Assembly (NCBI GenBank): GCA_951406725.2
Contig: OX597815.1
Span: 185,008,001-185,072,000 of the forward strand
Direction of reading: 5' to 3'
Length of the DNA: 64,000 bases
From: Octopus vulgaris
Taxonomy: Eukaryota
The position numbers and the translations under genes are program-made. The notes under the pieces are model-generated. The model was not told where the DNA came from. It saw only the letters and a list, made by a program, of their open reading frames with translations, and ran no database searches. This document shows, piece after piece, positions 3,836 to 62,393 of the stretch. The number at the start of each line of letters is the position of its first letter. Within the stretch, counting starts at the first letter, position 1.

Positions 3836-4040
3836 TGTGACCGCGTGTGTACCGTTGGCGATTTTTTTTCCTCTGTCTTCCCTTCTCTGGATCTTTCCTT
3901 CTCCTATGTTTCCGACAAAGAGCTCCGCTCGAATCATTAAACCCTCCTTCTCTCCTTCTTTCCTGAGCGTCCAATAATACTATATTTGTTCCACGTCCTC
4001 GCGTTGTTGTGTTTTTTTGTGCTTTCATGTTTGGATTAAC
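3836..4040 (+). mobile_element. Short PLE pseudo-LTR-like module with degenerate hammerhead motif (second copy at 25287-25492)
   Basis: Near-identical to 25287-25492. GTTT-CCGACAA-A-GAGC-TCC-GCTC-GAATCATT-AAAC at 3908-3942. Ends in (TA)n. Confidence 0.65.
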
Positions 4041-4159
4041 TATATATATATATGTAATCGTAGCCACTTTAACATAGCTATAGTTATATATTTGTGTAAA
4101 TATATATATATATATACCGAGCATCTTTATCCCGGTATATTTATATGGCAAATATCTAT

Positions 4160-4345
4160 ACTGAAAAACCGATGTAGCCAAACCAGCGAGCGATTGAGTA
4201 ATCACTGCTGACGTGTCTAAGATTGATAGCTGAAACTAGTCTAATCCAGTGATCCTAGATTCGCTCATTGGACGGTTATCCCCCCTGTCCGTATGTGTAT
4301 ATATTGCGCCCTTCATACAATATTGAGAGCTGTAACTCTTATTTT
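4160..4345 (+). mobile_element. Short module between TA tracts with degenerate hammerhead-like motif
   Basis: ATCACTG-CTGACGT...GAAA-CTAG-TC-taatc-CAGTGAT at 4201-4253. Palindromic stem III (ACTAGT) and 7-bp stem I, with a 5-nt interruption after the GTC. Confidence 0.5.
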
Positions 4346-6299
4346 TATATATATACACAGGCATACACACATAGTTTGGTAGACAGATAGAAAAGAGGTA
4401 GAGTTTACGTAAACTACAGTTTTAAGCTTTTGGCTACGGAATTTTAACAGGAGTGAATTTATCGTGTTACTCTCCTCGCAGAAAATAATAATATTAATTT
4501 GTACTGATATATTTCACAGCTCATTGACAATCATAAGGTGACAAATATCTTATCATTCGTCTATTGGAGAAGCAAAATTTACAGCCACAGGCAATTCACA
4601 TCAAATACAAGCTAGAACTTATCTTTAACGGCTAGACTATTTTGTGTGGCTTAACTTTGATCGCGACGTCAATAAATAGTGAATAAAAATATTTAAGCAC
4701 AGCGTGCAGTCGTATTAGCAAACCGAAGGTATATCCGAAGTAGTTAAAATGTAGTGGAACTTTAAAAAGATGTTAATACGAAATGAGTAAGACGTTTTCC
4801 CATGCTTTAAGTTCAACGGTTAAAAGTATAAACATATATTTTATCGGTTTTGATTTCATTTTAACTTCTTCAAAGAGCGCAGTGTTCATAAATATTTATT
4901 TAATATTTAATAGTGCCACCGACAAAGGCAAGCTGTGTAAATTTATAGAAACGCTACAGTAAAATTCTAGTTTTGGTTTTTATATACATACATACATACA
5001 TACATACATACATACATACATACATACATACACACTTGCATGCATACATACAAACATACATGCATAAACATATATATATATATATATATGCATAAATATA
5101 TATATATATATATATATGATAAAAGATATCTAAATGAGCAGTGAAACATATTAGCACAATTTTCCTATATTTGTTATGTACGAAGAGGAAGAGGGAAAAG
5201 TATTTGTATCTATTTAAATCTCGGGCGATAAAGTAATTTTAAAAAAGAATTAAGGCTTATGATACATGTTCCATTCTATCTATCTATCTATCTATCTATC
5301 TATCTATCTATCTATCTATCTATCTATCTATCTATCTATCTATCTATCTATCTATCTATCTATCTATTTATCTATATATATATATATATATCTGCCTATC
5401 CATTTATCTATCTATCTATCAACCCCTCTCTCTCTATGTATATATACATAAAGATCGATAGATAGATAGATAGATAGATAGATATAAATATAGCTATGAA
5501 TATAAATATATATATGCGCGTACATGTGTACTTACGAACATACAAATATTTTTAAGTCCAAGCATACTTAACTACATACTTTTATAAATATATATAGAGA
5601 GAGATGCATACATACATGCATGCATATATATGTATGTATGTATATATATACATATATATACAATTATTTATATATATATATACACACACACATATATATA
5701 TATATATATACACACACACACACACACACACACACATATATATATATATATATATATATATATATACATATATATATACAGAAATACTCATACACACACT
5801 ACGCACCACAAACATGCACATATAACAGCATATAAGAGGATATCTGTAAAAACGTAATGCAATAAACCTCTTAAGACAAGTTAAAAATTCAATACAGAAA
5901 ACAGATACAAAGAAAAGCCAAACACCTCTGTCTAAATCGTCGTGAAAACAGCTTCCTTTGTAGAATCAATGTAATTCATGAATCGCAATCCTTCCGCTCC
6001 GATTACATTTTGCAAATTGTGTGTTCCTCACTTGCACCTGATATTGAACACGTTTACGTAAATGGCGTTTGGCGCCAATGTTATCGCTTTTCCGGCTGTA
6101 TTCCTTCTAGTTACTATCGCTGTCAAATGTGCACCAAACCTTTCCTTAACCACTTTGAAATTTGCAATCAACCATTTGGTTATTCATAAAATGCAATGCA
6201 AAGTTTAAAGTATAAAACTAGACAATAATAAACATTACTCTTTGTGTTTTCTGTTTAATATTCGCGTTCAGTTTGAACACCTCCAAACGTTTTATTCTC

Positions 6300-60059: not shown

Positions 60060-60468
60060 AACGGAAGGAAATCTCGTTTCAAAACGTGACATCTAAGCCG
60101 CACACTAATTGACTAACATATCTCGTTGAAAAAAAAAAGCGGGATAAATGCTAACCAGGTTTGCGCATTCACTAAATCGTGACATCTAAGCCACATACTG
60201 ATTGGTCAAAATACAATTAGTAAGATTCAGCCTGCTGGAGTCCATTGGAGGCTATTTAAAGGACAAAACCAACCATTTCACTTCAGTTGTCTAATATGTA
60301 ACACGACTTTCACTACGTAAACATGAAGATTGCGTATCACATGAAAGTACTAGTTTATTTCAATAATGTAAAATTGTAAAAATTATTAATAATAAAACGT
60401 GAAAATCAGACTAGGTTGGAATTTCATTGATTAATATATTCTTCTATATTCAGTCATACAAACTTGGA
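60060..60468 (+). mobile_element. Probable inverted pseudo-LTR of the adjacent PLE, with hammerhead-like motif
   Basis: TAAAC-ATGAAGA-TTGCG-TAT-CACAT-GAAA-GTAC-TA-GTTTA at 60318-60357. Upstream ATTGG and TATTTAAA boxes; ends in (TA)n. Confidence 0.55.
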
Positions 60469-61429
60469 TATATATATATATATATATATATATATATATT
60501 GAGAGAAACAAGTAGACAGAGACATGTACATGCTAATAGAGGCCATTTTGACGGGGAACAGCAAACAGTCCACTATTTCGTTCGTTTTATATTTTCATAT
60601 AGATAAACTATTAGAAATTATGTTTTTTTTCCCAATTCACAAGACAAACATATACTTACTTTTTAGATTCAATGATGTACGTCGGAATAAAATCAATATT
60701 GTATTCAGTGCATATACGTCTTAAAGTACAAGCGTGTTTGAAGCACGTGTGAATAGAAGACGCGCGCACTGCACTATATTTCTGTGTACTGCTAATGAGG
60801 TTACTAATATCAGAGATGCGCAGAATTAGATTTCAGTAAGAAAGTATTCTTTAGATGTCTATTTTATCTTCGAATAGAAAACAAAAAAAGAGAAGTGAGT
60901 GCGCGATAATAATAGCTAGATGGAATACGTCTGCATGATTAATGCAAAATTCAATAAAAAGAAATGCACTCAGGAAGAAGATGGGAAAATATAAGACATA
61001 ATAGTTTGATGGATTAATAAATTAAAAATAGCTTTTTGTGTATAGATTTTATAGTTCGAAATATCAGTTGTCTACAGTTTTGAAATTAGAGAGCTGAACT
61101 ATAAAACTAAATGTATTTCGGTTAAAATATGGAACACACAGGTAAGAGATTGTATAAAAGTACTTAAATGCTTGCAAAAATGAAAGAGCATTTTCCGTTG
61201 CAGAAGGTTAGCGTAAGTGTCAAATTCATAGAAGTAAAAGATAATAGTTGAACTGCTTGTAAATTGCGTTCCTGCTGCGGAATAAGCCAACATTGTTTCA
61301 TTTTTCTATTTACTTATTGATTTGTATTTTTTTATCTCAATTCATTTCTCACCATGCAGGTCGTTAATCAAAAGTTTTCACGCCATCAATATACCTGCAC
61401 TTTTTTTGTAAATATAGACATCCATGTTG

Positions 61430-61577
61430 ATCTATAAAGATATAGATCTATGTTGCAATCTATATCTTTTTTAGAGATATAGATCTATATTTTTTTTAAA
61501 GATACAAATCTATATTTTTTAAAGATATAGATCTATATCATTACCTATATCTTTTTTAAAGATATCGATCTATATTG
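61430..61577. repeat. Short array of palindromic units (AAAGATATAGATCTATAT)
   Basis: About five imperfect copies separated by T runs. Confidence 0.8.
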
Positions 61578-62393
61578 CATAAAGTATTCTTTCGTACTCT
61601 ATCACAGAAGAGCGTAAGTTTTAAGTTATGGCAGCTATTTTAGCAGATCGATTCACATAGATTCTCTGAAGTTTTATCTTGTAAATCAAATAAATATCAA
61701 GAGAATAAGTACAGGGTGTGCAAAAATTGCTCTTACAATTTATAAAATTTCGAAAACAAAATTTAAAATAAGGGTAAGTCAGCTGAGTTTAGCATGGGCG
61801 CCATTCATTGCAAACAAGATGATCGATGGATCTCACTTAAATAGACACAATAAATTGTGGCAATGTTAAAGATGCTTTATGAACATCTGGTAATTCTGAA
61901 GAGGGTAATTATGTATCCCCAAAATTTTAATTAATTAATCTTACATCGAAACTAATGTTTTTCTAATTTATATATTGTGAATATACGATAGAGAGATTGA
62001 TAGATAAATAATAATATTAACAAATACATTGTAAATATAACGGAGGAAGCAGGTATATAAATCGGGATTAAAGTGAAAGTGTATCTTTTTTTATATATGG
62101 TACTGTAAGGAATTTCCTATGAAAACTATGTAAAACTTATTTATATGAATTCTGTTTTACTAGACCAGTTCAGCTGCGAAATTTTATAATTTTTCAATTA
62201 TTTGACTGCTATGAAAGCACTTGAAAATTTGAATATTAATAAAAGTACATAAACCCCATTTTCTAAGACGACTAACATTAGTTTTTAGTGTACAGTTTTA
62301 TCAATATTTAGAATATAGTAGTAGTAGTAGTAGTAGTAATAATAATAATAATAATAATAATAATAATAATAATAATAATAATAATAATAATAA

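Follow-up and report, generated by a model that had tools for sequence, protein, structure and literature searches.

Hammerhead motifs are known from the pseudo-long terminal repeats (pLTRs) of Penelope-like elements (PLEs; Cervera and De la Pena 2014, PMC4209133). Single dispersed minimal hammerheads, pairs on opposite strands, targeting of (TA)n and PLE-derived retrozymes have all been published (PMC4209133; PMC8557442; PMC7229834; bioRxiv 10.64898/2026.07.22.740005), and single short copies were earlier ascribed to truncation or deletion (PMC4209133; PMC3846280). We analysed 64,000 nucleotides of the Octopus vulgaris genome (assembly GCA_951406725.2, contig OX597815.1, positions 185,008,001 to 185,072,000, forward strand), hereafter the window, a non-coding region rich in microsatellites, in which remnants of retrotransposons and mariner elements occur together with a series of hammerhead-like modules. 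We consider it probable that these modules are the pLTR ends of about 11 PLE-type families (six adjoining a PLE open reading frame (ORF), and two others seen as ORF-less tandem units) with a predicted minimal type I hammerhead, and that most copies of three families, F1, F2 and F3, are run-off products and not random truncations. The link between hammerheads and PLEs is known; what is new is a sharp 5' boundary shared by most copies of three families, together with a predicted tRNA-like promoter in one of them.

The family labels F1 to F10 (F9 comprising F9a and F9b) were coined in this analysis. The modules resemble the published pLTR hammerheads (PMC4209133) in their core, short helix I and palindromic helix III, in an extra base between positions 9 and 10.1 (here in F1, F2, F3 and F8), and in forming many families per genome, mostly as single copies, with opposite-strand pairs a few hundred bases apart. 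They differ from them in that some helix II arms reach 50-80 nt, cores with U4C or A6U are abundant, and 5' ends pile up. The Poseidon_Ac element of Anolis (Frangieh et al. 2024, PMC11167929) is similar in that internal starts of reverse transcriptase (RT) explain a fixed 3' end with an optional tail, and in its AT-rich targets, as for F3; unlike F3, F1 and F2, the available text on it describes no tRNA-like head and no class of fixed-length solo pLTRs. In the literature searched (mainly open-access, outside Repbase, Dfam and supplements) we came across no PLE pLTR described as containing a tRNA-like head, and no solo pLTRs of fixed length explained as products of run-off.

Hammerhead motifs exceed chance

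A genome sample of 100 evenly spaced 10-kb stretches (L021-L120; 1 Mb, all counted) was drawn from the assembly (2.8 Gb, 227 contigs). The descriptor required, in order, helix I, the core, an optional extra base, helix II, GAAA, helix III, UH and helix I', and the controls were block-wise dinucleotide shuffles (three for the genome sample, 30 for the window) and the reversed sequence. With the strict core CUGANGA, 25 matches were found in the sampled megabase versus 2, 2 and 1 in the three shuffles and none in the reversed sequence. The looser core used in an earlier sequence-only reading of the window gave 49 matches versus 2, 2 and 2 in the shuffles and 3 in the reversed sequence. The window itself has five matches versus a mean of 0.13 over its shuffles; one of the five, at 41401, looks like a chance occurrence. 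When helix III pairing was not demanded, helix III was strictly self-complementary in 13 of 21 matches versus 0 of 7 in ten shuffles. Both expectations of that reading, a motif frequency above shuffled sequence and a stem III palindromic beyond chance, are thus borne out.

Over all loci examined, many of them selected for particular families, 210 matches with a self-complementary helix III fall into 32 helix III/helix I classes. Extrapolation from 1 Mb suggests between ~65,000 (strict core) and ~130,000 (loose core) intact motifs genome-wide, set against ~4,000-9,000 reported with a different descriptor in coelacanth and Xenopus (PMC4209133). A U3-A8 core variant has five matches in the sampled stretches, all with a palindromic helix III, versus 0-2 in shuffles, and none in the window.

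An Rfam scan of the window returned no hammerhead family among the best 150 of 326 matches, which were microsatellite-driven miRNA models; Rfam matched no hammerhead family to one canonical F5 motif; and an earlier descriptor lacking the extra base after A9 recovered none of the sites listed in the sequence-only reading.

Most window sites belong to repeat families

Sixteen hammerhead sites had been listed in the window. Fourteen of them (3908, 4201, 15407, 16362, 16630, 18337, 19014, 25358, 29271, 29504, 58187, 58378, 58507 and 60318) lie in about 11 repeat families whose other copies carry the hammerhead fold; for two (53941 and 61891) this is not supported. The descriptor is passed intact by only three of the 16 window copies (16630, 18337 and 58507), and 25358 passes a looser version. 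The remaining copies have decayed by substitutions, with 19014 retaining only a 3' half within a fold-back. Counting the unlisted members at 10230, 16993 and 58320, the window has 17 family members in 64 kb, in agreement with the suggested density of about one per 4-5 kb. The families had been proposed to be unrelated, which does not hold for all of them: F1 is related to F2, and the module at 15407 (F9a) to that at 29271 (F9b). The stem III at 4201 had been read as a 6-mer palindrome; the helix III of its family is 11 nt long with an unpaired centre.

PLE ORFs adjoin the pLTRs of F1, F2, F3, F4, F8 and F10, and are Hydra-, Neptune- or Poseidon-like. The proposal that the modules are solo pLTRs of PLEs or retrozyme-like elements is supported for these six families and for the ORF-less tandem families F5 and F6, with F7, F9a and F9b remaining unlinked in the loci examined. 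We also saw fixed 3' ends and two PLE hallmarks described in PMC8557442, inverted 5' copies and an optional tail of 30-40 nt.

The 263-codon F4 frame of the window has relatives with 98-100% protein identity at 145 scored matches (27,396 candidates), and full copies (L257, L259) have a 717-codon open frame with a pLTR and hammerhead on each side. The unit period is ~2.6 kb, with one ORF, and the protein carries RWK, DKT, a CxCX5C linker, CxxC/CxH and a C-terminal endonuclease. These features, together with the placing of CxxC and CxH about the E and N residues, the (TA)n targets and the presence of a hammerhead, agree with those listed for the Hydra clade, whose units are under 3 kb (Craig et al. 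2021, PMC8557442). F4 is unlike that clade, as described there, in being very young and abundant and in its U4C core.

F1 runs through a CA-rich untranslated region (UTR) into a Neptune-like ORF; the order pLTR-ORF-pLTR is seen in L242, and in L252-L254 the pLTR lies 2.1-3.3 kb downstream of the ORF. Neptune-like features in the translations of L196 and L182 are an RT, a CX2-5CxxC linker and, at the C-terminus, a GIY-YIG domain, and the protein has weak Pfam matches to RVT_1 and GIY-YIG, below cut-off. The reading of F1 as an endonuclease-less PLE, suggested by L141, was rejected, as full ORFs carry the endonuclease domain. For F2 and F8 the Neptune label is by similarity only. In one of 24 loci (L278) a GIY-YIG-type ORF ends ~1 kb upstream of the F2 pLTR. 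In F8 an ORF end is joined directly to the pLTR in L356, and the window pLTR is inverted beside an RT remnant (59000-60080). A relative of F10 is inverted beside a Hydra-like RT (L271). F3 directly follows the stop codon of an ORF in which an RT with a DKG motif and, C-terminally, a GIY-YIG-type endonuclease are visible by motif; we tentatively take this ORF to be Poseidon-like, of a clade without the linker zinc finger, from motif resemblance. Pfam recognised neither the F3 nor the F4 protein.

The modules had been thought to target TA repeats throughout. This is true of F1 (TA repeats after the 3' end in 21 of 23 copies), F2 (22 of 26) and F4 (4 of 6), against a background of 10.5%, but not of F3 (1 of 18), whose targets are AT-rich.

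Two further features of these elements were observed. A young Neptune-like family (L241, L246-L249, L260) has open frames of up to ~1000 codons, 6.2-kb tandem units and a ~3-kb CA-rich UTR, and a hammerhead with a U4C core and a disrupted helix I. On contig C31, ten near-identical (94-97%) loci (L223, L226-L229, L231, L236, L238-L240) are copies of a larger block that holds an F3 element and looks like a large segmental repeat; the contig also has arrays of F4 copies with 541-codon frames.

Short copies of F1 and F2 share a 5' boundary

The 5' ends were counted in loci not selected for the family (n = 33 for F1, one probably counted twice). F1 copies reach 60-225 nt from a fixed 3' end. Only 5 of 28 end at 100-189 nt, while of the 23 copies extending to 190 nt or more, 22 end no further than 216 nt, within the next 27 nt, and 19 of the 33 ends fall within 204-216 nt. 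A constant hazard of ending gives p ~1e-26 for F1, a value to be read with the copies not being independent. In F2, 21 of the 23 copies reaching 185 nt stop by 211 nt. The clustering is not an alignment stop, because the flanks at the 5' boundary are microsatellite or unrelated DNA.

One other explanation is that all modules are ordinary, randomly 5'-truncated PLE insertions, in which the RT falls off early, long copies are lost, and TA/TG microhomology biases the junction. Fixed 3' ends and the presence of longer copies in every ORF-linked family fit it, as do the many junctions with 2-4 nt of microhomology to the target, and single motifs are read as truncated PLEs in PMC4209133. The steep change in the F1 ends after 189 nt argues against it, and it gives no account of the F3 copies that start at a tRNA-like head or of the ORF-less tandems; we regard it as quite improbable. 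The earlier choice between random truncation and independent elements is too coarse, because the ends of F1, F2 and F3 belong to autonomous PLEs yet cluster at the 5' end. The common start point of most F1, F2 and F3 copies likely reflects copying to the start of the element's own RNA.

An alternative is that the short copies descend from independent, short non-autonomous masters, SINE- or retrozyme-like pLTR derivatives that use PLE proteins (SINE, short interspersed nuclear element). This is structurally true of F5 and F6, and elements combining RNA polymerase III (Pol III) and a hammerhead are known in Schistosoma (PMC6765202). Short F3 copies resemble tRNA-headed SINEs, and the two that were checked have no TTTT run. 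In a tree built from F1 copies, 21 of them short and 22 long (those with <80% identity, of <190 nt or of 217-259 nt being excluded), the length labels are clustered, with 7 changes versus 14.6 when shuffled. In the same tree, short copies form one clade in 0% of 200 bootstrap trees; they occur in several subfamilies and share a clade, starred on the tree, with long copies. The F3 head is also found within an ORF-bearing element, and no ORF-less F1 or F2 tandem was noticed in the loci examined, where no systematic search was made. Independent masters are thus unlikely as the general source, and we return to run-off at the start of the PLE RNA as the preferred explanation.

A tRNA-like head at the start of many F3 copies

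The F3 layout is a stop codon, ~35 nt, a 75-nt head with A and B boxes, (AAT)n, the hammerhead and the 3' end. The boxes were matched to what we take to be their consensus. Of the 56 heads examined, 24 match the A box exactly and 35 the B box; 15 match both, with an A-B spacing of 34 nt in every one of these, and relaxed ARAGORN calls a tRNA in 21 of the 56 versus 0.3 in shuffles. The head follows the ORF in 27 of 30 ORF-selected F3 loci (18 of 21 after collapsing the ten C31 loci). At other loci there are 45 head matches, some of them paired as both arms of a single insertion. The head is the starting point in 28, 12 are cut within it and five run into the ORF. Hence 28 of the 33 heads with an intact 5' end begin there, without upstream ORF sequence. 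In the random megabase, each of the 13 head matches adjoins an F3 tail. The F3 copies of the window lack the tRNA-like head.

The short form does not separate from the autonomous element as a SINE, with only its 3' end in common with its partner, should, since its head belongs to the ORF-bearing element; F3 may work like a SINE, and we have not filed it as one. The SINE-like elements of Schistosoma (PMC6765202) are similar in combining tRNA-like A/B boxes with a type I hammerhead in ~300 nt. In F3, unlike what is described there, the head precedes the hammerhead within the 3' UTR/pLTR of a Poseidon-like element that bears an ORF, and the copies are dispersed, with inverted 5' pieces, and not in tandem arrays. 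If correct, a tRNA-like head in the pLTR of an autonomous PLE would be a route for SINE origin by a partner other than a LINE (long interspersed nuclear element). The short forms may sit in repeat libraries as unclassified SINEs: an annotation of octopus repeats (PMC13282606) reports 893 recently active families of unclassified SINEs in an octopus, and the words 'hammerhead' and 'ribozyme' have no occurrence in its main text.

F5 and F6 are ORF-less tandem units

F5 is a 464-bp head-to-tail unit whose end runs into its own start (two full units in L311), with a hammerhead in each unit and a longest frame of 69 codons. F6 is a 345-bp unit of the same build (L340), in which no PLE ORF was seen, its frames not having been translated. 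A retrozyme-like reading, proposed for some modules, is therefore appropriate for these two ORF-less tandem families with a type I hammerhead. They resemble non-LTR retrozymes (PMC7229834; bioRxiv 10.64898/2026.07.22.740005) in their short head-to-tail units, type I hammerhead, lack of a visible PLE ORF and PLE-type insertion structure. Unlike these, as quoted, F5 at 464 bp exceeds the 170-400 nt range, the arrays are short, and the elements are known here from DNA. Two candidates were rejected: an ORF beside F5 in L332 is separated from it by a microsatellite and is a separate insertion, and the region 58100-58609 of the window is not a two-hammerhead tandem retrozyme, as F2 and F3 are found apart at other loci.

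A proposed run-off route and its difficulties

A PLE would be transcribed from a promoter within its upstream pLTR, and its RT would start at an internal site near a pLTR end, using the copy nearest the 5' end of the RNA. Running off at the RNA start after ~200-300 nt would leave a solo pLTR whose 3' end is fixed and whose 5' end is clustered. Copies of the Neptune- and Hydra-like families would be inserted into (TA)n; those of F3 would enter AT-rich DNA, with duplications of 11-14 bp, and their start would be set by the predicted tRNA-like Pol III promoter inside the pLTR. Solo copies, which lack what lies beyond the RT start, would be dead ends. The F5 and F6 tandems retain that sequence and, as retrozymes, would be able to move again. 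Pairing of the self-complementary helix III is predicted between two copies, and cleavage by the hammerhead is probably weak or helped by protein; the element may not need it.

Published work provides precedents for several of these steps. A lizard Poseidon element shows internal RT initiation in vitro and a tail, with hammerhead cleavage that is protein-assisted and dispensable (PMC11167929); minimal hammerhead motifs cleave weakly as dimers (PMC4209133); an internal promoter is described for the Penelope of D. virilis (PMC2377424); and initiator-like motifs are present in rotifer pLTRs (PMC3846280). If the route is right, the sharp, family-specific 5' boundary follows from internal RT initiation in a way that can be tested, and indicates where promoters should lie. 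A bolder version is that a Poseidon-like PLE acquired a Pol III promoter of tRNA origin within its pLTR and releases SINE-like hammerhead copies of 300 nt by the tens of thousands, a SINE arising within its own partner, and that, more generally, the excess of solo minimal hammerheads across animal genomes consists of run-off products to the pLTR start whose 5' ends map PLE promoters from DNA. We put this forward tentatively, as a suggestion with a little less than an even chance of being right.

A number of observations weigh against the run-off reading. The transcription starts, the use of Pol III, RNA circles and cleavage are predictions from DNA. The upper F1 boundary coincides with an initiator-like hexamer that is absent in one subfamily and was judged by what we assume to be the initiator consensus, making it a lead only. 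The long F1 copies in the tree are a biased set, picked for their likeness to a single copy in the window, and F4-like 5' ends (n = 11) have a different pattern, clustering at 50-100 nt with three long copies. For F3, default ARAGORN calls one of 12 heads. Rfam aligns the D, anticodon and T arms of the L178 head at 16.1 bits versus a cut-off of 29, and finds no tRNA match for the F3 heads of L063 and L173. Target duplications of at least 9 nt (9-14) occur in 7 of 28 F3 copies versus 10% in the control. A hairpin at the F3 boundary could stop the RT on its own. No upstream direct pLTR was seen for three long F3 copies, nor did we find a full-length F3 element with an upstream pLTR. No PLE frame was found upstream of relatives of F7, F9a and F9b in the loci examined, nor any partner element for F5 and F6, and the clade names Hydra, Neptune and Poseidon are provisional labels from motifs, without a tree.

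The cores belong to the same side of the balance. The F1 core has U4C in 56 of 71 copies, young F4 also has U4C, and the F2 core has A6U in 59 of 61 copies with position 7 free; in the young sister of F1, helix I is disrupted. F1, F2 and F4 are hammerhead-like variants without the canonical core. For the F4 core we used no more than the top word of the flank pattern, which was so loose that its 210 matches were mostly noise. The canonical core is the majority form in F3, F5, F6, F7 and F8, and is found in 36 of 41 pattern matches of F5. In cofolding of nine modules, F1 not among them, F5, F6, F7 and F10 gave a two-copy hammerhead; F4 and F9 paired in helix III only, and F2, F3 and F8 took other folds. 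The modules are predicted to fold into a minimal type I hammerhead, which may cleave as a dimer.

The folds could instead be vestigial, being inherited pLTR sequence that no longer cleaves or a protein-binding structure. The fixation of U4C and A6U in abundant families and the broken helix I of a young one point this way; in the lizard system, ribozyme mutants did not impair insertion in vitro and the available text reports no RNA-seq ends at the cleavage site (PMC11167929). The persistence of canonical cores in five families and the 32 helix III/helix I classes with a self-complementary helix III speak against this reading, as does a swap of G-C to C-G in helix I that separates F1 from F2 (one pair, one event). 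That the folds are vestigial is possible, though we incline against it, and for some families it is compatible with run-off copying. This one genome has families, young as well as old, whose cores are canonical, U4C or A6U, a natural series with which to study the need for the ribozyme.

Features of the window

A generic repeat finder was dominated by microsatellites on the window, and only a 472-nt inverted pair was usable. The modules and neighbouring remnants are collected in Table 1.

Table 1. Modules and related features of the window (positions count from the first letter of the window).
Position	Strand	Feature	Hammerhead and remarks
3803..4040	+	F1 solo pLTR, Neptune-like PLE	decayed, 3908-3942
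4136..4289	+	F6 fragment of 345-bp tandem unit	decayed, 4201-4253
10230..10345	-	F3 short fragment	starts inside helix II; unlisted in the sequence-only reading
15204..15702	+	F9a pLTR-like module	15407-15480, U4A; no ORF link found
16134..16532	-	F5 partial copy (16442-16134) with inverted 5' piece (16443-16532)	16351-16411, G8A
16590..16742	-	F7 module	16629-16723, intact, canonical, long helix II insert; no ORF link found
16894..18436	+	F4 young Hydra-like PLE, 5'-truncated, with 472-nt inverted 5' copy	18337-18399 (+) and 16931-16993 (-), core U4C
17365-18144		F4 ORF end, GIY-YIG-type endonuclease	
18887..19240	+	F10 fold-back of pLTR 3' end	3' half only, near 19014
25285..25491	+	F1 solo pLTR, 207 nt	25358-25392, core U4C
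29134..29390	+	F9b module, inverted 5' piece 29134-29224	29271-29318, helix I decayed; no ORF link found
29410..29615	-	F2 solo pLTR, Neptune-like PLE	decayed, 29506-29541, core A6U
53631..54030	+	3' end of RLE-type (restriction-like endonuclease) non-LTR retrotransposon	not a hammerhead family; second copy 30375-30647 (-)
58100..58609	-	composite: F2 58609-58501, F3 58473-58342, F2 piece 58350-58315, F3 58285-58100	F2 58509-58544, intact, A6U; F3 58376-58423 and 58186-58233, helix III decayed
59000..60080	-	remnant of a Neptune-like RT and endonuclease, decayed; belongs with F8	
60080..60467	+	F8 pLTR, inverted at 5' side of the remnant	60317-60358, C3A (canonical in family)
61891..61935	+	hammerhead-like letters	no family support; not accepted

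The two sites outside the families were rejected on different grounds. At 53941 the family core is CCAAUGA, with G5 in 0 of 26 copies, and an RLE-type frame lies upstream; its motifs are what we take to be those of the restriction-like endonuclease of R2/R4-type elements. The 3' UTR of this family (L287-L305) has a conserved hairpin followed by GAAA and a near-palindrome, mimicking half a hammerhead, and the element terminates at (CATA)n or (CA)n. The 19 genomic matches of the site at 61891 are all confined to sequence upstream of the motif.

Several other repeats were seen in the window. A family of ~180-400 bp, often a 184-bp tandem or inverted repeat and with no hammerhead match, is probably the main SINE-like repeat of the genome (copies at 1317-1912, 2998-3121, 8516-8653, 19720-19896, 35528-35770, 39472-39866, 52867-53256 and 56869-57294). 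Two GC-rich 228-bp tandem copies (7723-8175, 92% alike), also without a hammerhead match, lie downstream of a decayed non-LTR RT. Inverted repeats of 244 bp (34878-35121 and 36838-37081, 96% alike, ~1.7 kb apart) are possibly a derivative of a DNA transposon, and a mariner-type transposase remnant (45536-46830, Pfam Transposase_1) is found between 40-bp inverted repeats. Small inverted-repeat elements are present at 42253-42499 and 51716-51969. Non-LTR RT remnants on the forward strand are located at 27294-28951 (RVT_1) and 62394-63890 (RVT_1 and zf-RVT), the latter after (TAA)n.

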